Positions 4,248 through 48,726 of a stretch of DNA of 64,000 nucleotides are shown here, in pieces. Numbering within the stretch: position 1 is the first letter of the stretch; the number at the start of each line of letters is the position of its first letter. The stretch is from a bacterium. Lineage in GTDB: Bacteria > Bacillota > Clostridia > Christensenellales > CAG-917. The translations under genes and the position numbers were made by a program. A model generated the notes under the pieces. It was given only the letters and a program-made list of their open reading frames with translations. It was not told the DNA's origin and made no database searches. Location: positions 1,770 through 65,769 of the forward strand of contig CAVKIG010000001.1 of NCBI GenBank assembly GCA_963656415.1. Reading direction: 5' to 3'.

Positions 4248-5141
4248 TTACAGCAATGCGTCGATAAATTCCTTTGCGTTGAAGGGGATCAAATCGTCGA
4301 TTTTTTCGCCAACGCCGACGTATACGACGGGAAGCCCCAACTCTTCACTGATTGCAAGCACAACGCCGCCCTTTGCCGTTCCGTCGAGTTTTGTGAGTAT
4401 GATGCCGTCAGTGTCGATGTCTTCGCTGAAAATCTGTGCCTGAGAAACAGCGTTTTGTCCTGTGGTTGCGTCAAGCACGAGATATTTGCGGAAGTCTGCA
4501 TCAGGAAGTTCTCTGTCCACCACTCGGCAAATCTTTTTGAGTTCCGCCATAAGGTTTTTCTTGTTGTGAAGTCTGCCCGCCGTGTCGATAAGCACCACAT
4601 CGTTGCCTTTTGCCTTTGCAGACGATATTGCGTCAAACACGACTGCCGCCGGATCTGCGCCTTCGCTGTGGCGAATCACGCGCACGCCTGCACGCTGTCC
4701 CCACACTTCGAGTTGCTCGCTTGCCGCCGCTCTGAAAGTGTCTGCGGCCGCAACAACGACGGACTTGCCTTCTTCTTTGAATCTGTGCGCAAGTTTGCCG
4801 ATTGCAGTCGTTTTTCCGACGCCGTTCACTCCCGAAAGCAAAATCACGAGCGGATATTCGTATTCGGGTACGTCGTAATCGATGTCTTCGACCATAAGTT
4901 CGGCAAGAACGCTCTTTGCGTCTTCTGGCTTTTTGATTTTGCGCTTGAAAATCTCGTCTTTGAGTTCTTCGATGAGATTCTCGGTTGCAGTTATGCCTAC
5001 GTCTGCGGTCAGCAACGCTTCTTCGAGATTTTCATAAAACTCGTCGTTGAGTTCGCGAGCGGAAAACGCAAAGAACAGCTTTTTTGAAAAAGCGTCTTTG
5101 GTCTTCTTTATTCCTTCTTTGATTTTTTGAAAAAATCCCAT
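4248..5141 (-). CDS. ftsY: SRP receptor FtsY
   Basis: GVNGVGKTT P-loop, DTAGRLHNK and TKLDGTAKGG motifs. Short Gram-positive type of 297 aa. Confidence 0.95.
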   Translation of the reverse strand: MGFFQKIKEGIKKTKDAFSKKLFFAFSARELNDEFYENLEEALLTADVGITATENLIEELKDEIFKRKIKKPEDAKSVLAELMVEDIDYDVPEYEYPLVILLSGVNGVGKTTAIGKLAHRFKEEGKSVVVAAADTFRAAASEQLEVWGQRAGVRVIRHSEGADPAAVVFDAISSAKAKGNDVVLIDTAGRLHNKKNLMAELKKICRVVDRELPDADFRKYLVLDATTGQNAVSQAQIFSEDIDTDGIILTKLDGTAKGGVVLAISEELGLPVVYVGVGEKIDDLIPFNAKEFIDALL

Positions 5142-5478
5142 ATTGTCATCCTTTACAAGATTTTATTGTACTTGCCATAGAAATGGCGATATTCCAACGA
5201 GCCGCCCTTATTGTCATCCTGTCAATGCAAAGCGAAGCAACTTGCTCGCAAGGGTTGCGTAGCGCATGTATTCACGTAGCAACGCCTTTGAAAAAGGCAA
5301 AACCGTAGGTTCTATGCGCCAGCATAGCAGTTGCGAGTAGTTTGTCGAAGGATCTCGTGGAAACGAAACGGCACTATATGCACGTCATTTCACATCATTC
5401 CGCTCCCGCGAGATTGCCACGCTTGCGCTCGCAATGACAACAGGGGGCTTTTGCGACAAACAGCTAGCGGAGCGAGCC

Positions 5479-5637
5479 ACCAAGCCGATAATTTGGCGAA
5501 ACTGCGACATGAGTTTTTGTCCTTGCTCGAACTGTCACAAATTCTCTGCGCGGTTAGCAGCGCAATAAACCTAGCTAGGCTCTTGGCAATGCGCATACTT
5601 GCGCGTTGCCGTTGCCGTAATGACGGCTTTTGTTCGG
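5479..5637 (+). repeat. R1 structured repeat, copy 1 (full)
   Basis: Starts ACCAAGCCGATAATTTGGCGAAACTGCG. Ends with hairpin GGCAATGCGCA-TACT-TGCGCGTTGCC, then GCCGT..ACGGC + TTTTGTT. Confidence 0.8.
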
Positions 5638-5664
5638 GTGCTGGTGTCCCGCCATTTCGAATAT

Positions 5665-5820
5665 ACCAAGCAGATAATTTGGCGAAACTGCGGCATGAGT
5701 TTTGCCCTTGCTTGAACCGATAGCGCAAATTCTCTGCGCGGTTAGCAGAGCAAAAAACTAGCTAGGCTCTCGGCGTTGCTTGCAAGCAAGCGATGCCGTT
5801 GCCTATGCGACGGTTTTTGC
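5665..5820 (+). repeat. R1 structured repeat, copy 2 (full), abutting the smc stop codon
   Basis: Starts ACCAAGCAGATAATTTGGCGAAACTGCG. Ends GGCGTTGCTTGC-AA-GCAAGCGATGCC, then CCGT..ACGG + TTTTTGC. The smc stop is at 5821. Confidence 0.8.
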
Positions 5821-8800
5821 TCATTTTGCGTGTTTAACAGCATCTTCAAACTCGATTGAAACAATCTTGGTGACGCCTTTTTCTTCCATCGTAACGCCGA
5901 AAATCGTATCTGCGTGGCGCATGGTCGGTTTTCTGTGCGTGATGACGATAAACTGCGTGTAGTCGCTGAATTTCTTCAAGAATTCGGCAAACAAGTTGAC
6001 GTTTGCATCGTCAAGAGCCGCTTCGATTTCGTCAAGCACGCAGAACGGCATCGGTTTGAGCTTGAGAATTGCAAACAATATGGATATAGCCGTAAGTGCC
6101 TGCTCTCCGCCGCTGAGAAGAGAAATGTTTTGCAATTTCTTTCCCGGGGGCTGTGCGTAGATGTCGATGCCGGCTTCGAGCGGATCATCCGTGTCTTGCA
6201 TATTGAGACGAAGCTCACCCTTGCCACCGCCGAAGAGTTGTTGGAACACTTCTTTGAAGTTCTCGCTGATTTGCGAGAACGCGTCGGTGAATTTGGTCTG
6301 CATCTCGCCGGTGAGTTCGTTTATTATCGTGACGATATCGTCATACGCTTTTTGAATGTCGTCGCGATAGGTCACTTGTTCTTGCAATCTCGCTTCCGTC
6401 TCCTGCAACGTTTGAAGTGCAAGCGGGTTGACGTCTCCGAGTCTGTTTATGGACTTTTTAAGGTCGGATATAACGGTGAGCGCGCCGTATGATTTGAATT
6501 CGGGGTCTTTGAATTCAAGGCAACTCGAATACGTCAAGTCGTATTCTTCGAGAATATGCTGTTGCTGGTTGCGGATTTCGATGTCAACCTGTTCGAGCAT
6601 ACCCTCGGCACGCACCTTGTCTTCGCCGAGTTTGCTCTTCTCTTCCGTGAGACGAGTCTTCTCCGCGTCGAGATTTTTGATGGTTTCGGTGAGAGTCTGC
6701 TTGCGCTCGGAAAACTCAGTTATTTGTTTTTCGAGAATAGCGATACGTTCTTCGTCTTCCTTTGAAAATTGCGTCTTTTCAGGTGCATTTTCGATGTTGG
6801 CAAGGTTTTGCTCTTCGCGTTTAAGGTCTGCTATGCAATCGATCTTGTCTTCTTCGAGCGATTGTTTTTCACGATTATAGCGATTGAGCTCTTGGTCGAT
6901 AGAGTCGAGATTTGCCTTGTAACCTGCAAGTTTCACTCGCATTTCGGTGACTTGCGTCATCATCGTTTCGCGCTCGCTCTTCTGTTCAGAACTCGTATTC
7001 TTTGAACTTTCGAGAAGCGAAGTGTATTCTTCTTTCCTTTCATTGACGATTTTTTCAAGTTCGTCGATTGAACTCACTTTTTCGTCCAGTTCTTTTATAC
7101 GCGCCTTGACGACTTCGTATTCCTTCGCTTTCTCCGCGATTTCCGCTTTCAGCGCTTCGGTCACTTCAAAAGCCTGTTTCGCCTTGTCTTCGTTGAGTCC
7201 GTTGTCTATGCGGAGTTCTCCGATTTCCTTGTTGAGACTTTCGATGCGCTCTTCGCAGTCTTTAAGTTCCTGCTCACGCTCTTCTTTTTGTTTGTCCAAA
7301 AGCGCGATATTGTTCTTGATTTTTTCAAGGCTGGCTTGATACTGCTCGATTTTCTTTTCCTGTGCAAGCAAACCGTTTGTTTGAGACCTTCTCGAACCAC
7401 CGGTGATTTCGCCGCCGCGCGAGAAAATTTCGCCGTCGAGAGTGACAATCTTCACCGCCTGATTGTATTTTTTGAAAATTCTTATTGCGTTGTCGATGTT
7501 GTTGACGACAACCGTAGAGCCGAGCAACGTCTGCACGAAACCGTCAAATTTCTTGTCGTATTTGATAAGGTCGCTTGCAAGCCCGTAGCAACCGGGTTCG
7601 GTCAGAATTCCGCGATGTTCGGGAGCAATCGGGCGGGGTCTGCACGACGTGAGCGGACGGAACGTAATACGCCCGTAACCTTTCTGCTTCAAATAGTTGA
7701 TAAGGTCTCTTGCGTCGTTTTCGTTTTCTACGAGCACGTTTTGCATTGCGCCGCCGAGTGCGTATTCGATTGCCGCTTCGAAGTCGCTCGGAACGGTGAT
7801 AACTTCTGCCATAACCCCCATAATTTTGCTTTCGAGCACGGGGTCGTGCTTGGAGTCTTGCATAAGGCGTTTCACCGCTTCCTGATAACCTGCATAATCG
7901 TTCTTTATGGACGTTGCGAGATTGAGATTGCCGAGTACGATTGCAAGTTTCTGGTTGAGAGCAAGTACGTCTTCGCCATAACTCTTTATCGCTTCCTGAC
8001 ACTCCATTTTGGCGGAAAGCGTCTCGTTGTATTCGCTCATAACCTGACGCATGCGCTCTTTCGTCGATTTGACATTGCCGTCGTAAATGGACAAGTTTGT
8101 GAGTTCTTCGTCAAGGCGAGCCTTTTGTTGATTTACGAGTTCGAGCAAGTTTTTGGCACGCTCGTCGTTTATTCCCTTCTCTGCGACTATGCTCGAAAGG
8201 TTTGTTTTCAATGCGCCGAGTTCTTCTATTGCGCGAACGTATTCGTTGTTGCGCGCTTCAAGGTCGGTCTCGGAGCCTGCAAGCGTGCGCGTGAGCGTGG
8301 AATACTTCGCTTCGAGCGCGTCGGCTTCCTGTTTTGCAAGCAAAAACGCCTGAAATTCGCTTTCTTTTTTCTCTTCGGCCTTTTGAATGAGTTGACCGCT
8401 GACGATAAGTTGATTGTCGATTGATTGAAGTTCGCTGTTAAGACGGGTGATTTCGCCTTGAATGTGGTTGATACGCTCTTTTAAGATTCCCGCTTGTCCT
8501 TCGATTTTTGCAGCGTCCACTTTAAGAGACAACAATTCGCCGTTTGCGTCGTCGTACACTCTGTCGATACCCGCAAGTTCACGCATGCAATCGTCGTATT
8601 TTTTGACGCATTCTGCAAGTTGCATTTCGCGGATTTTCAATTCGGTCTGTGCCTTGTCAATCTTCGCGTTTATCTTCTCTTTTATGCTTTGGTTGTTTTC
8701 GTAGTTGTAAATATAGAGATTGACTTCGTTCTTTTTGAGTTCGCTTTTAAGTTCGAAATACTTTTGAGCGGTCTCGGCCTGGCGGCGCAAAGGATTGATT

Positions 8801-9411
8801 TGCTTTTGAATTTCGTCGATAAGTTGATTTGCCGTGTCGAGATTGACCGCAGTCTTTTCAAGTTTGCGCTCCGCTTCCGTTCTTTGCGCGCGGAATTTGG
8901 AAATACCTGCCGCTTCTTCGAATATCTGACGACGATCTCCCGGCTTTGCAGACATGATTTCGGCAACTCTACCCTGTCCTATGATGGAATAACCTTCCTT
9001 GCCGATACCGGTGTCGTGGAAAAGGGAGATGACGTCGCGCATACGAACGCGATTGTGGTTTATGTAATATTCCGAAAGTCCGCTTCTGTCGAGTTTTCTC
9101 GTGATAACCACTTCGTCGAAAGGCATCGTCGGGAAAATATGTTGGTCGGAGTTGTTGAACGTGAGCGACACTTCGCAATAAGACATGCTCTTACGCTTTT
9201 CCGTACCTGCGAAAATAACGTCCTGCATGTTTTTGCCGCGCAAAGATTTCGCACTCTGTTCACCGAGCGTCCAACGGATAGCGTCCGCAACGTTTGACTT
9301 ACCGCACCCGTTCGGTCCGATAATAGCCGTTACGCCTTCCTGAAACGGAATTTCGATTTTATCCGCAAAGGATTTGAAACCCCTTGCTTCGATTTTGACG
9401 AAATTTAACAA
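5821..9411 (-). CDS. smc: Chromosome segregation protein SMC
   Basis: ORF 5821..9492. GFKSFADKIEIPF...GPNGCGKSN Walker A, long coiled coils, hinge, LSGGEQALTAI signature and VLDEIEAALD Walker B. Start moved to TTG at 9411 (M-LNFVKIEARGFKSF) with AAGGCGG 9 nt upstream. The longer ORF would read through the predicted promoter. Confidence 0.9.
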   Translation of the reverse strand: MLNFVKIEARGFKSFADKIEIPFQEGVTAIIGPNGCGKSNVADAIRWTLGEQSAKSLRGKNMQDVIFAGTEKRKSMSYCEVSLTFNNSDQHIFPTMPFDEVVITRKLDRSGLSEYYINHNRVRMRDVISLFHDTGIGKEGYSIIGQGRVAEIMSAKPGDRRQIFEEAAGISKFRAQRTEAERKLEKTAVNLDTANQLIDEIQKQINPLRRQAETAQKYFELKSELKKNEVNLYIYNYENNQSIKEKINAKIDKAQTELKIREMQLAECVKKYDDCMRELAGIDRVYDDANGELLSLKVDAAKIEGQAGILKERINHIQGEITRLNSELQSIDNQLIVSGQLIQKAEEKKESEFQAFLLAKQEADALEAKYSTLTRTLAGSETDLEARNNEYVRAIEELGALKTNLSSIVAEKGINDERAKNLLELVNQQKARLDEELTNLSIYDGNVKSTKERMRQVMSEYNETLSAKMECQEAIKSYGEDVLALNQKLAIVLGNLNLATSIKNDYAGYQEAVKRLMQDSKHDPVLESKIMGVMAEVITVPSDFEAAIEYALGGAMQNVLVENENDARDLINYLKQKGYGRITFRPLTSCRPRPIAPEHRGILTEPGCYGLASDLIKYDKKFDGFVQTLLGSTVVVNNIDNAIRIFKKYNQAVKIVTLDGEIFSRGGEITGGSRRSQTNGLLAQEKKIEQYQASLEKIKNNIALLDKQKEEREQELKDCEERIESLNKEIGELRIDNGLNEDKAKQAFEVTEALKAEIAEKAKEYEVVKARIKELDEKVSSIDELEKIVNERKEEYTSLLESSKNTSSEQKSERETMMTQVTEMRVKLAGYKANLDSIDQELNRYNREKQSLEEDKIDCIADLKREEQNLANIENAPEKTQFSKEDEERIAILEKQITEFSERKQTLTETIKNLDAEKTRLTEEKSKLGEDKVRAEGMLEQVDIEIRNQQQHILEEYDLTYSSCLEFKDPEFKSYGALTVISDLKKSINRLGDVNPLALQTLQETEARLQEQVTYRDDIQKAYDDIVTIINELTGEMQTKFTDAFSQISENFKEVFQQLFGGGKGELRLNMQDTDDPLEAGIDIYAQPPGKKLQNISLLSGGEQALTAISILFAILKLKPMPFCVLDEIEAALDDANVNLFAEFLKKFSDYTQFIVITHRKPTMRHADTIFGVTMEEKGVTKIVSIEFEDAVKHAK

Positions 9412-9442
9412 GTTACTATACCGCCTTATTATAATCTTAATA

Positions 9443-9471
9443 ATTTTAGCATATAAAAACGCATTTTTCAA
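9443..9471 (-). promoter_or_regulatory. Sigma-A-type promoter of smc (TTGAAA-17-TAAAAT)
   Basis: Minus strand: -35 at 9471..9466 and -10 at 9448..9443, about 30 nt upstream of the TTG start at 9411. Confidence 0.55.
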
Positions 9472-9484
9472 GCGGTTTTTAAGA

Positions 9485-9518
9485 TGTTTCACAATTGTTT
9501 CACACTATCCGTGAAACA
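9485..9518. promoter_or_regulatory. TGTTTCAC / GTGAAACA octamer cluster upstream of the smc promoter
   Basis: TGTTTCAC at 9485-9492 and 9496-9503, GTGAAACA at 9511-9518. The last two form a perfect 8+8 palindrome with a 7-bp spacer. A fourth copy, GTGAAACA, lies at 9600-9607. Confidence 0.5.
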
Positions 9519-25521: not shown

Positions 25522-25786
25522 CTGTGCGCCATCTTCGATAATCATCACCGAAGCGGGAACGACGTAGGTGGCTCCTTCAAAGTTTCCCTGTGGCACACGC
25601 CAACGCCTGCTTAGTGCTGCTGCGGTCAAGCTCTGACACGGTTCACAGTATGACATTGCACAGGACCTTGATATCGACACTCCTTGCGCCGTGCAGCCAA
25701 CCATGATGAAGACCTAGGATGGTGTTCGACACTGCTATTGCGGATTGCAGTTTACAGGGCACCGCAAGCTCCCCGTCTAGCACAGC
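25522..25786 (-). ncRNA. ffs: Signal recognition particle RNA, large Bacillus type with Alu domain
   Basis: The minus-strand RNA aligns by eye with B. subtilis scRNA, recalled from memory. The 5' block is GCUGUGCUAGACGGGGAGCUUGCGGUGCCCUGUAAACUGCAAUCCGC. Further on come GGUCCUGUGCAAUG...GUGUCAG...AGCAGCACUAAG...GUGUGCCACAGGG. The 5' CUGUGC pairs with the 3' GCACAG. It has its own TTGCAA-17-TATAAT promoter and a T-run at the 3' end. Confidence 0.85.
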
Positions 25787-25792
25787 GATATG

Positions 25793-25821
25793 ATTATATC
25801 ATCAACCACCGATTTTTGCAA
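25793..25821 (-). promoter_or_regulatory. Sigma-A-type promoter of the SRP RNA (TTGCAA-17-TATAAT)
   Basis: The -10 ends 6-7 nt before the predicted RNA 5' end (GCUGUGC...). Confidence 0.65.
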
Positions 25822-25857
25822 CAACAATTTTGCGTGAATTTTCACAACGATATGTTT

Positions 25858-26159
25858 TATACTTTAATGCAACTTTCCCCTTTCCTCAGGTGTTTTCCCC
25901 ATTGCCGTTTCCCCTTAAAAGGGAATCCACGGCAACCGCGTGGCGGGGGACAACACTCAGCTCTCGCATAGATTGGTATCGTACACTTATTATGCCACCA
26001 CGCTTTGTGCGCCGGCTACGCAACAACATGGCGCAGTCGCTCGTACAAACCGTCAAGCTCGGCGTTCGATTTGCTCGCCGCCGTTGCGGCTCGTGTTCCG
26101 TCTTCGAATATTCACAGTCCGTGTATAAGAACTCTCCGAATAGGTTTTCGTTTCGGGTG
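25858..26159 (+). repeat. R2 bipartite repeat, copy A
   Basis: A ~100-nt 5' module (TATACTTTAATGCAA...GGGGGACAACAC) and a 108-nt 3' module (GTCAAGCTCGGC...CGAATAGGTTTTCGTTTCGGGTG) are shared with 48238..48582. The core differs. Confidence 0.8.
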
Positions 26160-26183
26160 TGGGTGCCCCAACCGCTTAAAAAT

Positions 26184-26345
26184 ACCAAGCCGACAATCTT
26201 GCGAAGCTGCGGCAGGAGTTTTTGTCCGTTACCAAACTGATAGCAAAGATTTTCGGCGCGGTCAGCAGAACAACAAGCCTAATGCGGTTCTCGGCATTGC
26301 TTGCTTTCAAGCGATGCCGTTGCCGCAATGACGGCTTTTGTTCGG
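26184..26345 (+). repeat. R1 structured repeat, copy 3 (full)
   Basis: Starts ACCAAGCCGACAATCTTGCGAAGCTGCG. Ends GGCATTGCTTG-CTTT-CAAGCGATGCC, then GCCGT..ACGGC + TTTTGTT. Confidence 0.8.
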
Positions 26346-26684
26346 ATGAAGAACAAGAAAGAGCCACACTAACGGCAACCCTAATGTACTGAGCGTACAT
26401 GAGTTGACGAGAGCGTGGCTCTGACGAAGTTATTCGCTAATAGAAAAAACTAGTAAATAAGGCTGATATTTAGATGCAGAGCAATGAAAAGCCCCTTGGG
26501 AAACAACCCTAGTGTACGTTTGGTACATGAGTTGTTTTTTGCGGCAGTCAATGTATATTAAGGAAAATAATCGTTATATTTAGATGAAGAACAAGAAAGG
26601 CACGGCTTGAACCAAAACCCAACGTACAAAGCGTACGTGATTTTGGAGCAAGCCGTGCCTGACGAAGTTATTCGCTAAATAGAA
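26345..26684. repeat. Array of three long-hairpin units (U1 26345-26445, U2 26466-26570, U3 26576-26684)
   Basis: U1 and U3 share flanks GATGAAGAACAAGAAAG and TGACGAAGTTATTCGCTAA(A)TAGAA around different ~60-nt hairpins. All three tips read GTAC-N5-GTAC. U3 ends 3 nt from the EF-G2 stop. Confidence 0.8.
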
Positions 26685-26687
26685 CGA

Positions 26688-28751
26688 TTATTTTTTGGCG
26701 GCTTCTTCTTCACGCTTCTTAGCATCCGCAATAATCTTATCGTTGTTCATTGCGGGCACTTCTTCGTAGCGGACGATGTGCATTTCAAACTTACCGCGAC
26801 CTTGCGTCATGGAGCGGAGATCGGTTGCATAGCGGAACATTTCTGCTTGCGGAACTTCTGCGGTGATGATTTGTTTGCCGTTTGCCATATCGGTGCCGAG
26901 AATACGACCGCGACGTTTGTTCATATCGCCGAGAATGTCGCCGAGATACTCATCGGGAACGGTGACTTTCGCTTCAACGATAGGTTCAAGGAAGCACGGA
27001 CCTGCCGCCGCAATACCGTCTGCATATGAGAGTTTCGCTGCGGTGACGAATGCGATTTCCTTGGAGTCGACGGGGTGATATTTTCCGTCATAAAGCGTCG
27101 CTTTGAGATTGACCATCGGGTATCCTGCGAGAACGCCGTGTTTGATTGCTTCGCGCAAGCCTTTTTCGACTGCAGGAATGAATTGACGCGGAACTGCGCC
27201 GCCGACAACTGCGTCTACGAATTCGAAATCGCCGTCTGCCGCACCCGGCTCGAACTTGATGAAAACGTCACCGTATTGACCTGCGCCGCCAGATTGTTTC
27301 TTGTGTTTACCTTCTGCGGAAGCGGTCTTGCGGATAGTCTCGCGATATGCGACTCTGGGTTCTTGCCAAGTGATGTCGATGCCGAGTTTACCTTTGACGC
27401 GTTTGCACATAATGTCGAGTTGCGCTTCACCGAGACCGCTGATAAGCACGTCACCGGTTTCAACGTTCTTTTCGACCTTGAACGTTGCGTCTTCTTCTTG
27501 CATCTTGATGAGCCCTTGAATTGCTTTTTCTTCGTCTTTGAGAGCCTTGACTGCGTAAGAGATGACGGGCTTCGGGAATTCGATTTTCTCAAATTGAATC
27601 TTGTTGTCGGGAGTTGCGAGCGTGTCGTTGGTGTTGGTGTACACAAGTTTTGCAACCGCGCCGATGTCGCCTGCGTTCAAGCAATCGACGGGTTCTTGTT
27701 TCTTGCCTTTGAGAACGTAAAGCGTACCGATTTTTTCGGTTTTGTCAACGCTGACGTTGTAGACGGTGTCGCCGCTTGAGAGTTTGCCGCCGAGAACTTT
27801 GAAGATAAGAAGTTTTCCGACGTACGGGTCAACGACAGATTTGATGACTTGTGCGCAGAACGGAGCGGACGGATCTACGCCGACTTCGATTTCTTTGCCG
27901 TCTTTGATTGCTTTGATCTTGTGCGCTCTTTGCGGATGCGGCATAAGATCGACAAGTTTGTCCATAAGACGTTTGACGCCCTTTGAAGTTTGTGCATTGC
28001 CTGCAACGAGCGGAACGAAAATATCGTCTGCGATTGCAACGTGCAAACCTTTCTGAATCTCTTCGTCGGTGAACGCTTCGCCGTCAAAGAATTTCATCAT
28101 GAGCTCTTCGTCGGTCTCGGCAATCATTTCCATGAGTTTGCCGTTGAATTCGTCAATGTCCGCTTTCATAGATGCGGGAGCGGAGATTTCTTTATCGGAA
28201 AGGTCAAATGCCTTGCCTGTGAGAACGTCCACTGTACCGACCATCTTGCCGCCTTCCATAATCGGAAGTTCGATGGGGACTACACTCTTATATTTTGCCA
28301 TGATGGCTCTTGCCGTGCCCATGAAGTCACTGTTGTCTTTGTCGACAGCATTGACGAAAATGAGTGCGGACACTCTCTTTTCTTGGCAAAGTTCGAGAGC
28401 CTTTTCAGTGCCGACGGTGACCGAACCGGTCGCGCTGGTGACGACGACTGCGCTGTCTGCTGCGTGCAAAGCGGCAATCATTTCGCCTTCGAAATCGAAA
28501 AATCCGGGAGCGTCGAGAATGTTTATCTTGGTGTTGCGATAAATCGCGTAACCGAGAGACAAAGAAATTGAAATCTTGCGTTTGATTTCTTCGTCATCGT
28601 AGTCCATCGTAGACGTGCCGTCGTCGACTTTGCCGAGACGGTCGATGGTCTTCGCTTCAAACATCATTGCTTCTGCGAGGGATGTTTTGCCCTCGCCGGA
28701 GTGGCCGATGAGCGCAACGTTGCGGATTGAGTCTGTATCAAAAATCTTCAT
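26688..28751 (-). CDS. Elongation factor G paralog (EF-G2-like translational GTPase)
   Basis: 687 aa with five-domain EF-G architecture. The G1 motif is GHSGEGKTS instead of the canonical AHIDAGKTT, followed by DAPGFFDF. Not located in an str operon. Confidence 0.8.
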   Translation of the reverse strand: MKIFDTDSIRNVALIGHSGEGKTSLAEAMMFEAKTIDRLGKVDDGTSTMDYDDEEIKRKISISLSLGYAIYRNTKINILDAPGFFDFEGEMIAALHAADSAVVVTSATGSVTVGTEKALELCQEKRVSALIFVNAVDKDNSDFMGTARAIMAKYKSVVPIELPIMEGGKMVGTVDVLTGKAFDLSDKEISAPASMKADIDEFNGKLMEMIAETDEELMMKFFDGEAFTDEEIQKGLHVAIADDIFVPLVAGNAQTSKGVKRLMDKLVDLMPHPQRAHKIKAIKDGKEIEVGVDPSAPFCAQVIKSVVDPYVGKLLIFKVLGGKLSSGDTVYNVSVDKTEKIGTLYVLKGKKQEPVDCLNAGDIGAVAKLVYTNTNDTLATPDNKIQFEKIEFPKPVISYAVKALKDEEKAIQGLIKMQEEDATFKVEKNVETGDVLISGLGEAQLDIMCKRVKGKLGIDITWQEPRVAYRETIRKTASAEGKHKKQSGGAGQYGDVFIKFEPGAADGDFEFVDAVVGGAVPRQFIPAVEKGLREAIKHGVLAGYPMVNLKATLYDGKYHPVDSKEIAFVTAAKLSYADGIAAAGPCFLEPIVEAKVTVPDEYLGDILGDMNKRRGRILGTDMANGKQIITAEVPQAEMFRYATDLRSMTQGRGKFEMHIVRYEEVPAMNNDKIIADAKKREEEAAKK

Positions 28752-47226: not shown

Positions 47227-47931
47227 ATGAACTCTTGGGCAGTCGTTGACTGGACCACGGACGTTTGGCATTTTATAGTCAGAATGCTCGTTGCCGCCGT
47301 GTGCGGATTCGTCATCGGTCTCGAACGCAAATCACGCAGTAAAGAAGCAGGTATCAGAACGCACGCCATCGTGTGTCTTGCTGCTTGTCTTTTTATGATA
47401 TTGTCAAAATATCTTGCGCAGCCGCTCTTCTCGGATATGCCGAACAGCTCGTTCACGGGTGACGCAACTCGTATTGCGTCTCAGGTCGTCACCGGCATAG
47501 GCTTTTTGGGCGCAGGTATCATCATGTACAGACGCGACGTCATGCACGGTCTCACCACCGCGGCAGGCGTGTGGGCAACGGCGGCAATCGGCATGGCTCT
47601 CGGCGCGGGATTTGTGGTCACGGGCGTGTGCGCAACGGCAATCATCGTTGTGTTGCAACTTGTATTCCACCTTCCCGTCAAAGCATTCACCACCCGTCAT
47701 ATCTCCGTTATAAGAATGCTCGTGTGGCTTGAAACAGACGATATTCTCGACAAAATCACCGACAAGCTCGGCTCAAAGAAAATCTCGTCCTACAAAGTCA
47801 AGCAAGCGGACGGCAAGATGATCGCAAGCGTCGAAGTTTCAACAACGGACGAATTTTCCGTGGCAAAACTCAATGAAGTCATCCGTGCTTATCCCGAACA
47901 CGTTATGAGCATTGAACGAGTGGACGAATAA
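47227..47931 (+). CDS. MgtC/SapB family membrane protein with C-terminal ACT-like domain
   Basis: GLERKSRSKEAGIRTH motif and four to five TM segments. 234 aa. Confidence 0.85.
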   Translation: MNSWAVVDWTTDVWHFIVRMLVAAVCGFVIGLERKSRSKEAGIRTHAIVCLAACLFMILSKYLAQPLFSDMPNSSFTGDATRIASQVVTGIGFLGAGIIMYRRDVMHGLTTAAGVWATAAIGMALGAGFVVTGVCATAIIVVLQLVFHLPVKAFTTRHISVIRMLVWLETDDILDKITDKLGSKKISSYKVKQADGKMIASVEVSTTDEFSVAKLNEVIRAYPEHVMSIERVDE

Positions 47932-47955
47932 GAGCAAAAATCATCGCATGTTTAC

Positions 47956-47990
47956 GAACACCGCACATTTTTGTGCGGTGTTCTTTTATT
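47956..47990 (+). terminator. Intrinsic terminator after the MgtC-family gene (duplicated at 48131-48165)
   Basis: GAACACCGCACA-TTTT-TGTGCGGTGTTC followed by TTTTATTT. Confidence 0.8.
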
Positions 47991-47997
47991 TGCTCGA

Positions 47998-48090
47998 TTT
48001 TTGCTCTGCTTATCGCGCCGAAAATTTGCGCTATCATATCACGCACGGATAAAACTTCACTCCGCAGTTTCGCCAAATTGTCGGCTTGAT
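47998..48090 (-). repeat. R1 repeat, copy 4 (5' two-thirds, inverted)
   Basis: The reverse complement reads ATCAAGCCGACAATTTGGCGAAACTGCGG...GCGCGATAAGCAGAGCAAAAA. A 36-nt fragment is repeated at 48173..48208. Confidence 0.7.
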
Positions 48091-48237
48091 GTGCGCTTCG
48101 CGCCTTTTTTTCTTTTCATCGCATGTTTACGAACACCGCACATTTTTGTGCGGTGTTCTTTTATTTGCTCGATTTTTGCTATGCTTATCGCGCCGAAAAT
48201 TTGCGCTAGTTTTTTTATTTACAAAAGTTTTTCGTCA

Positions 48238-48582
48238 TATACTTTAATGCAATTTTCCCCCTTCGTCAGCTGTTTCCCCTATCGCCGTTCCCCCTTAAAA
48301 GGGAACCCACGGCGACTGCGTAGCAGGGGGCAACACGACACGATTGACGCAAGGCGTAACAATCGCTATTCCGTCACTTCGTTCCTTACGGTCGAGACAT
48401 AACTTGCGCCATTTCTCTTATTGTGTCACTCGTTCGCAAGCGAATGGAACAACACTCGCTTACTTGTACTAATCGTCAAGTCCGACGCTCGATACGGTCG
48501 CCGCCGTTGCGGCTCGTGTTCCGTCTTTGAATAAGCACATTCCGTTAATAAGAACACTTCGAATAGGCTTTCGTTTCGGGCG
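48238..48582 (+). repeat. R2 bipartite repeat, copy B
   Basis: Same end modules as 25858..26159 (5' 48238-48336, 3' 48475-48582) with an unrelated 137-nt core. Confidence 0.8.
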
Positions 48583-48663
48583 CACCCAAAAACTATGTCA
48601 TTCTGAACAAAGTCGAAGAATCTCGCGGAATCGAAACTATAAACTTTTTTGCGCCCGTACCGC

Positions 48664-48696
48664 AATTATTCATTATTAATTATTCATTATTAATTA
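48664..48696. repeat. 14-bp tandem repeat AATTATTCATTATT x2.3
   Basis: Read directly from the sequence. AT-only micro-duplication next to a terminator. Confidence 0.8.
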
Positions 48697-48726
48697 AAAA
48701 AAGCACGCAATGCGTGCTTTTTTTTC
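48695..48726 (-). terminator. Terminator abutting the 2-hydroxyacid dehydrogenase stop
   Basis: AAAAAAAGCACGCA-A-TGCGTGCTTTTTTTT. Confidence 0.75.

Follow-up and report, generated by a model that had tools for sequence, protein, structure and literature searches.

Short interspersed repeats occur in several bacterial groups, among them the REPINs, which have mainly been described in Proteobacteria, and BOX, RUP and SPRITE, which belong to Firmicutes. The latter three are intergenic repeats of 100-200 nucleotides (nt) with stem-loop folds and are found clustered with other repeat families; BOX is in addition modular, with A, B and C modules of which B varies in number. SPRITE, BOX and RUP cluster together, and SPRITE, which has a long duplex and a U-rich tract, shows strong enrichment where convergent genes have their 3' ends (PMC3049150). 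REPINs and REP or BIME elements form long imperfect hairpins as single-stranded DNA (ssDNA) or RNA, commonly show compensatory changes, and lie outside genes as singlets, ordered clusters and tandem arrays that persist vertically and form BIME-like mosaics (PMC3116915; Bertels and Rainey, 2011). Here we describe R1, which resembles these elements in the traits listed and was found in a stretch of 64,000 nt from an uncultured bacterium of the Clostridia (Christensenellales, CAG-917; assembly GCA_963656415.1, contig CAVKIG010000001.1, forward-strand positions 1,770 to 65,769), hereafter the window. R1 is a real and previously uncatalogued repeat family, and in its behaviour it resembles the small interspersed repeats found elsewhere among bacteria, not a single new RNA gene.

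With a probability of about 0.62, we believe that R1 is a module of a lineage-specific, small, non-coding and non-autonomous family of mosaic repeats that lies between the genes of a clade of uncultured Clostridia from the human gut. This assignment rests on the restriction of R1 to one lineage, on its dispersed, tandem, truncated, chimeric and nested copies, on its companion repeats and on its presence or absence within species, as well as on the assembly breaks that fall at the repeats and on the lack of a promoter and of an open reading frame (ORF). The compensated hairpin, the extragenic copies and the clusters or arrays that characterise REPs and REPINs are all found in R1. However, neither the strict definition of a MITE (miniature inverted-repeat transposable element) nor that of a REPIN accommodates it, and for that reason we have filed R1 as a new family of this general kind, outside the named families.

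An exact-pattern scan of one genome per species yielded at least 114 external loci, cited below by L numbers where they need to be told apart. At least 111 of these come from about 16 species known as metagenome-assembled genomes (MAGs) of the human gut and labelled uncultured Clostridiales or Clostridia, 'Christensenella sp.', Clostridiales UMGS, CAG:238 or CAG:475; three others, in a Planctomycetota and two Proteobacteria, have no profile match and were set aside as chance matches to the pattern. Across the window and these loci nhmmer recovered at least 168 copies, about 160 of them outside the window, where copies are thus abundant; 68-76 are full length, about 40 span model positions 1-115 and about 25 span positions 1-80. 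Tandem arrays occur in L049, L067, L016 and L086, and identity of the unit exceeds 70% across loci and species. A few of the MAGs that carry R1 bear clearly wrong labels: those from CAVBBF, CAVKUX and CAZCKS (for example, L001, L002 and L054) are labelled Phascolarctobacterium succinatutens, Anaeroplasmataceae or Bacteroides, yet share synteny or repeats with the window, and are probably mislabelled bins or mis-binned contigs.

No described family accounts for R1. When the whole window was searched against Rfam 15 at the gathering threshold, only the signal recognition particle (SRP) RNA and one tRNA were reported, and searches of both strands in E-value mode, over 5100-5900 (E <= 10) and 25786-26700 (E <= 5), returned only sub-threshold, chance-level matches to eukaryotic, viral and Xanthomonas families. 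A known RNA family was therefore rejected as the identity of R1. A plasmid, phage or virus origin was likewise discarded, since neither blastn against collections of plasmids and phages nor a pattern scan over viral contigs gave a match, and a literature search on repeats in Christensenellales gave nothing relevant.

Four copies of R1 lie in the window. The original prediction, made from the sequence alone, had placed three full copies on the plus strand, and an nhmmer profile of these three recovers them all (5479-5639, 5665-5825 and 26184-26347), along with minus-strand matches at 48089-47993 and, as a fragment, at 48208-48168. An unfiltered search with a covariance model that covers positions 1-109 detects exactly four copies (5458-5560, 5639-5748, 26158-26268 and 48110-48006) and no other credible match. 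The conserved 26-nt start that the prediction had described as shared occurs four times in the window and never in 100 shuffles. What had to be changed is the extent of the unit: the family stands, but rather than about 160 nt it measures about 190 nt, beginning some 25 nt earlier with a short hairpin, P0, which is followed by a long imperfect 5' hairpin and a second long imperfect hairpin, the 3' domain.

Copies 1 and 2 form a tandem pair between smc (5821..9492, minus strand) and ftsY (4248..5141, minus strand), antisense to both genes. Copy 1 (5458..5639, plus strand; nhmmer, covariance model, sequence, fold and terminator scan) has an atypical variant of the upstream hairpin, GCTAGCGGAGCGAGCC, a 5' domain at about 5479-5560, a penultimate hairpin at 5586-5611 and a hairpin with T-run at 5608-5637. 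Its A-rich arm (5560-5571) derives from one subfamily and its T-rich arm (5625-5635) from another, which makes the copy a chimera and explains why its closing helix is partly broken. Copy 2 (5639..5825, plus strand; nhmmer, covariance model and terminator scan) has its 5' domain at 5665-5748 and its penultimate hairpin at 5773-5798. Its reported end at 5820, 1 nt before the smc stop codon (5821-5823), holds, and its closing helix, in which 5747-5758 pairs with 5812-5822, takes in two bases of that codon. Copy 3 (26158..26347, plus strand; sequence, nhmmer, terminator scan and covariance model) lies between the SRP RNA gene (25522-25785, minus strand) and a gene for an EF-G-like protein (26688..28751, minus strand); it consists of P0 at 26158-26183, the 5' domain at 26184-26268, the penultimate hairpin at 26294-26319 and a closing helix of 26268-26279 with 26333-26343.

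Copy 4 (47931..48114, minus strand; nhmmer and covariance model) directly follows mgtC (47227..47931, plus strand). It had been taken for an inverted copy of the 5' two-thirds of the unit at 47998-48090; it is present there, but it is a complete element with a swapped apex. Its P0 (48091-48103, with a T-run on the plus strand) and 5' domain (48089-48006) are followed by closing arms, AGAGCAAAAATC (47931-47942) and GATTTTTGCTCT (47994-48005), that flank the mgtC terminator at 47956-47983, and the outer arm starts one base past the mgtC stop codon. The 36-nt fragment that had been noted beside it also exists, as the end of a 175-bp tandem duplication: the period 47941-48115 is repeated in part at 48116-48208, a truncated R1 unit on the minus strand that the repeat search aligns at 99% identity. 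The same duplication (47941-48208) doubles the strong mgtC terminator, which stands at 47956-47983 and again at 48131-48158.

The fold of R1 is conserved across the family while its sequence changes. When 68 distinct copies were aligned together with the 28 nt upstream of each, RNAalifold gave a structure that has double changes in 28 of 38 pairs. After this structure was extended by hand and its pairs counted, it comprised 50 pairs in six helices, with 93.2% of the alignment cells paired; 38 of the 50 pairs change on both sides, a number reached by none of 500 shuffles, and slid controls are 31-49% paired. The signal that the original prediction had drawn from the compensated stems of a few copies grows stronger with more of them, and the three versions of the penultimate hairpin that it had quoted can be read from the sequence. 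P0 is a 6-bp hairpin a few bases ahead of ACCAAGC and exists in versions such as GCGTGC-aaa-GCACGC, GCGCAC-gaa-GTGCGC, CGTGCC-gtta-GGCACG and GTGGG-tgt-CCCAC; as it is attached to R1 in 96 of 117 occurrences and is almost never found away from it, we rejected the idea that it is an independent REP. In the long helix that makes up the 5' domain (about 80 nt), the 9 bp at the centre are hypervariable yet always compensated, in at least six versions (AGATAATCT, CGACAATCT, AAGCACTCG, AAGCGTTCG, AAACGATAT and AAGTCATCG), within a near-invariant frame of CAAGC, GCGAAAYTGYGG, GATAGC and GCGCGGTTAG.

The 3' domain, also of about 80 nt, is one extended rod of three helices with a GC-rich apex stem. In its closing helix the A-rich arm GCGCAATAAATC pairs with the 'terminator' T-run GATTTTTGCGC, and 10 of 11 pairs covary, as do all six pairs of the middle helix and 9 of the 12 pairs of the penultimate hairpin. 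A terminator scan calls a hairpin with T-run in all three full copies of the window, as had been claimed, but the simple picture of a hairpin plus terminator does not survive, because the T-run is itself paired in the covarying rod. The small terminator hairpin (CGTTGC/GCGACG) can form in 88% of cells, yet only one of its six pairs covaries, against 16 of 17 in the extended rod, and we do not regard it as the conserved structure.

It is the sense strand that carries this fold. It is the stabler strand in 62 of 66 distinct copies (means of -62.8 and -53.7 kcal/mol for sense and complement, respectively), and it holds 317 G.U pairs against 166 on the antisense strand. The better folding and the nearly twofold excess of G.U pairs indicate that the constraint acts on that one strand, as RNA or as ssDNA, in agreement with the selection on a single-stranded fold that the original prediction had proposed. 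In repeats, however, compensated stems can also arise through selection on the element's own propagation or through template-switch correction of quasi-palindromes, and covariation in R1 is consequently not proof of a host RNA function.

R1 is a mosaic. The copies that span model positions 1-115 are R1 units whose 3'-domain apex houses a nested module of about 60 nt (..TATTTAGGGGATTCCCACGC..CGCTCTGAATGAC..). Those of the '1-80' class, of which copy 4 is a member, keep P0, the 5' domain and the closing arms around a different apex, usually a strong bidirectional terminator; the mgtC terminator itself is found at that locus alone in our data and was dismissed as a mobile module. In chimeric copies, of which there are some, the two arms derive from different subfamilies and have lost their pairing. 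In tandem arrays, the sequence between copies is the conserved P0 module, and some internal copies have no T-run; given this conserved spacer and the lack of an associated gene, a CRISPR-like or ToxI-like array was also ruled out.

Two further repeats accompany R1, and the order X, P0, R1, Y recurs across loci. X is a multi-copy non-coding repeat of about 300 nt, identified by repeat search, nhmmer and alignment at 25858..26157 (plus strand), with a second element at 48238..48580 (plus strand; repeat search and nhmmer) that adjoins copy 4 and is not joined to it in the usual order. The two are 84-86% identical. In the window and the fetched loci X has 62 nhmmer matches in 49 sources, and it usually stands directly before P0-R1, as it does in at least 15 loci; its alignment shows local hairpins alone, with modest covariation, and it has no Rfam match. 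A conserved motif, TTCTTCCTCTACAAGAGT, is present about 20 nt before the start of X in many loci. Y is a hairpin repeat of about 100 nt with the layout GATGAAGAACAAGAAAG .. apex GTACnnnnnGTAC .. TGACGAAGTTATTCGCTAA and compensated stems, and has about 40 nhmmer matches in 29-30 sources. The Y units of the window (26345-26444 and 26575-26689, with a partial unit near 26460-26540; plus strand; repeat search, sequence and nhmmer) follow R1, and the last of them ends at the stop codon of the EF-G-like gene (26688-26690).

Smaller modules are also found among these repeats. A short hairpin module, GAGATTGCCACGCTTGCGCTCGCAATGAC or GTCATTCTGAACAAAGTCGAAGAATCTC, occurs at 5380-5425 and 48598-48630 of the window and at many loci in either orientation, upstream of R1, after X, and inside the 3'-domain apex of '1-115' copies. 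Another module, the AT-rich and frequently doubled AATTATTCATTATTAATT, is present at 48666-48700 and in L021, L031, L035, L043, L044, L049 and L091, where it adjoins terminators and an A-run variant of P0; it might be a source of promoter-like sequence.

Turnover of R1 is evident both between and within species. R1 is present at the smc stop codon in four species (the window, L052, L057 and L113), whose coding DNA is only 75-83% identical, and the subfamilies and the copy number differ. In L077, R1 lies between two genes that overlap in the window; no target-site duplication was seen in this comparison, the two species being too diverged for that to be decisive. Within the species, contigs that encode an identical MgtC were compared at the copy 4 locus. 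Most strains have no more than the truncated unit: eight of the contigs carry it alone beside the terminator, two of these ending soon after, while the window has one full unit and the truncated one, L125 has two full units and the truncated one, and L124, interrupted by a run of N, has at least one full unit and the truncated one. The 175-bp period at 47941-48115 is thus represented by 0, 1 or 2 full copies within one species.

Contigs that encode an identical EF-G-like protein allowed the same comparison at copy 3. Among these strains the intergenic region varies from 733 to 1431 nt, and a block of 499 nt made up of X, P0 and R1 (25846..26344, plus strand) is present in five alleles and absent from six, in which 44 unrelated nt take its place. 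No direct repeat flanks the block, and the junctions between filled and empty alleles read ..TTTCAC|block|GATGAAG... L133 and L134 contain a further 146-nt module between P0 and ACCAAGC, and Y is represented by one to four units per strain. Between the X alleles of the strains compared, several compensated substitutions occur together, a pattern that suggests gene conversion among dispersed copies. At smc-ftsY, short-read contigs with an identical FtsY or Smc end in the spacer, at or near the R1 copies.

The position of R1 relative to genes is biased. With the orientation of neighbouring genes taken from a longest-ORF heuristic, 56 of 69 full copies, and 109 of all 144 copies, have beyond their 3' end a convergent gene, encoded on the other strand with its stop codon towards R1; the upstream neighbour shows no strand preference. 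Between genes that run in the same direction, R1 is antisense 25 times and sense three times. A stop codon lies within 12 nt of the 3' end in 20 of 56 cases. At least five T in the 8 nt after the hairpin are found on the sense strand of 56 of 68 copies and on the antisense strand of 49 of 68, and this U-rich tail on both strands makes the 3' domain resemble a bidirectional intrinsic terminator. Terminator polarity is weakened as the cause of the orientation bias for the same reason, most copies having a U-rich tail on the antisense strand as well.

We also considered a replication-strand bias of the kind described for IS200/IS605. By GC skew, the plus strand of the window is the C-rich strand throughout, and the sense strand of R1 is on the C-rich strand in 44 of 66 loci. 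That placement is the opposite of the one described for IS608-type elements. As the upstream neighbours are split about evenly between strands, we attribute the 2:1 bias to the orientation of R1 relative to genes and find in it no support for an IS200-like preference for the lagging-strand template.

Several observations weigh against our assignment. The near-invariant loops, and the retention of R1 at the smc stop codon in four species, would also fit a host function. The only well-resolved present/absent polymorphism is a replacement of 499 by 44 nt and not a clean insertion, and could be due to nothing more than recombination. When 2252 ORFs from the loci, each of 110 amino acids or longer, were clustered all against all, no multi-copy ORF near copies emerged; the clusters that did form are ABC ATPase paralogues and spurious ORFs inside repeats, and a linked transposase was therefore rejected. 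Nor was an IS200-like or REP-associated tyrosine transposase (RAYT) gene found in 830 kb by tblastn with an approximate IS200 TnpA query and a scan for HUH/Y motifs, a weak search that a single-copy gene elsewhere in the genome of about 1.6 Mb, or a divergent RAYT, would escape. No terminal inverted repeats are apparent in the consensus by eye, the inverted repeats of R1 being internal to each hairpin, and no target-site duplication was seen. Furthermore, the orientation statistics depend on simple gene calling, the sense strand lies on the C-rich strand in two-thirds of loci, explicable as this is by gene-relative orientation, and termination by the 3' domain is a prediction from its sequence features. 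Of the two identities offered in the original prediction, a REP/MITE-like element that donates terminators is nevertheless much the closer, provided that a strict MITE, with its terminal inverted repeats and target-site duplication, is not meant.

The other identity on offer was a multi-copy small RNA. On this view the functional RNA would be the 5' domain, and the 3' domain would terminate it, at times serving a convergent gene as well; at many loci X-R1 would then be one longer transcript. The strand-specific fold with its G.U excess, the unpaired loops that are near invariant across species, the terminator-like 3' end in the sense direction and the conserved motif just upstream of X all speak for such genes. 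However, a scan found no sigma-70-like site on the plus strand upstream of any copy in the window, just as the original prediction had seen no promoter there, and the sequences upstream of P0 differ from copy to copy, so that a promoter at a fixed distance, as expected of small RNA genes, was not found. Given in addition the arrays with internal copies that lack a T-run, the truncated and chimeric copies, and the dispensability of R1 within species, a mosaic module that is present or absent between strains fits far better, and we consider small RNA genes decidedly improbable. Still less can be said for an orphan scaffold of a guide-type RNA, such as the omega RNA of TnpB or IscB or the bridge RNA of IS110. 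R1 is similar in size, has two stem-loops with internal loops and a hypervariable but compensated 9-bp stretch in its 5' helix, and occurs in many copies without an adjacent ORF; yet Rfam, which includes HEARO and IS605-orfB-type RNAs, gave no family match in the E-value searches described above, no TnpB, IscB or IS110-like ORF recurs near the copies, and the variable stretch is double-stranded and common to whole subfamilies at unrelated sites, and so does not track the flanking DNA. We regard this as very improbable. That R1 is the decayed 3' end of a protein-coding gene with its terminator is scarcely credible: within their first 33 nt copies 1 and 3 differ at six sites, five of which are third positions of a single frame (QADNLAKLR..), but these 'synonymous' sites are compensated base pairs. 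No frame is open in the majority of copies, the best being open in just 24 of 64, a deletion of 1 nt and a stop codon interrupt that of QADNLAKLR.. in the commonest subfamily, and there is no start codon; a coding remnant was accordingly rejected.

A domesticated cis-acting element, as has been proposed for REP and BIME, deserves more attention, although we think it unlikely. R1 would then serve as a terminator, as an insulator between converging transcripts or as a 3' structure that protects mRNA, and its multiplication would be secondary. The proximity of the 3' domain to stop codons, the R1 copy at the smc stop codon in four species whose coding DNA has diverged, the A-tract, hairpin and T-tract that most copies present in both directions, and the strong bidirectional terminators in the apex of the '1-80' class are what such a role would predict. 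On the other hand, presence or copy number varies within species at both of the loci that could be compared, tandem arrays and truncated and chimeric copies exist, the conserved 5' domain is given no role, and the mRNA of the adjacent gene would contain the antisense strand, which is the poorer folder. A bolder proposal is that R1, X and Y together represent a new kind of bacterial mobile element that is copied through a folded single-stranded intermediate, or, read from the sense strand, a multi-copy regulatory RNA. In the former case, a trans-acting enzyme would recognise an RNA or ssDNA intermediate through the invariant loops of the 5' domain, and its targets would be terminator hairpins or the 3' ends of genes. 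This is improbable as well, but the contact with stop codons, the arms that surround native terminators and the invariant loops persuade us that there is roughly one chance in eight of something mechanistically new.

Based on these observations, we propose the following model for R1 as a non-autonomous mosaic repeat. Tandem duplication or unequal crossing-over, together with gene conversion among dispersed copies, would both multiply and reshuffle the repeat. A trans-acting enzyme probably also takes part, and may recognise the folded single strand as happens for REPINs and the ends of IS200-type elements. Propagation would then be limited to copies that keep the fold, giving rise to subfamilies with compensated stems. 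With its A-tract, GC-rich hairpin and T-tract, the 3' domain would form a Rho-independent and probably bidirectional terminator. Finally, selection would keep those copies whose terminator is harmless or useful, that is, copies just downstream of genes.

Set beside the systems described at the outset, R1 differs from each. In contrast to BOX, RUP and SPRITE, it belongs to an unrelated lineage and combines a terminator-like hairpin with a conserved 5' domain whose loops are invariant; BOX and RUP have terminal inverted repeats whereas R1 has none, and the three families are set apart from R1 by their descriptions. In a REPIN, a pair of inverted REPs, each about 25 nt long (20-40 nt) and bearing a conserved 5' tetranucleotide, makes up one hairpin, and the element is linked to a RAYT gene that is present once and has REPs on its flanks, while R1 consists of three distinct hairpins in a fixed order and no RAYT was found for it in the 830 kb searched. 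R1 resembles bidirectional intrinsic terminators in its A-tract, GC-rich hairpin and T-tract between convergent genes or after a stop codon; unlike them, it is a repeated unit conserved across loci and species, and its closing helix runs 4-6 bp past the T-tract, with outer pairs that covary and are needless for termination. The palindrome-associated transposable elements (PATEs) derived from IS200/IS605 share with R1 the lack of terminal inverted repeats and target-site duplication, the subterminal hairpins and the strand-specific structure. In R1, however, P0 has no sequence relationship to the 3' hairpins, the flanks show no conserved target tetra- or pentanucleotide, and the approximate-query search of the 830 kb found no Y1 transposase.

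Two neighbours of the R1 loci are worth recording. The SRP RNA gene beside copy 3 is of the large Bacillus type (163.5 bits), and its promoter at 25821-25793, of the near-consensus extended -10 kind (TTGCAA, 17 nt, TATAAT), lies some 25 nt left of position 25846, at which the polymorphic X-R1 block begins. In L123, a gene for a large serine recombinase with Resolvase, Recombinase and Zn_ribbon_recom domains is found at 1-1129, about 1.4 kb upstream of mgtC, in the place that an Oxidored_FMN gene takes in the strains of L122, L124 and L125; this suggests an integrated element that varies between strains.

The R1 repeats break short-read assemblies of an abundant and uncultured gut lineage, and the intergenic regions in which they lie differ by hundreds of bases between strains with identical flanking proteins. 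They probably also set the 3' ends of many transcripts. The family is thus relevant to genome annotation, to strain typing and to the calling of small RNAs and riboswitches by covariation. In the last case, the strong and clean covariation of a repeat shows that compensated stems alone are no indicator of an RNA gene. Furthermore, an enzyme that recognises the fold of R1, if one is found, would extend REPIN-like systems to the Clostridia.

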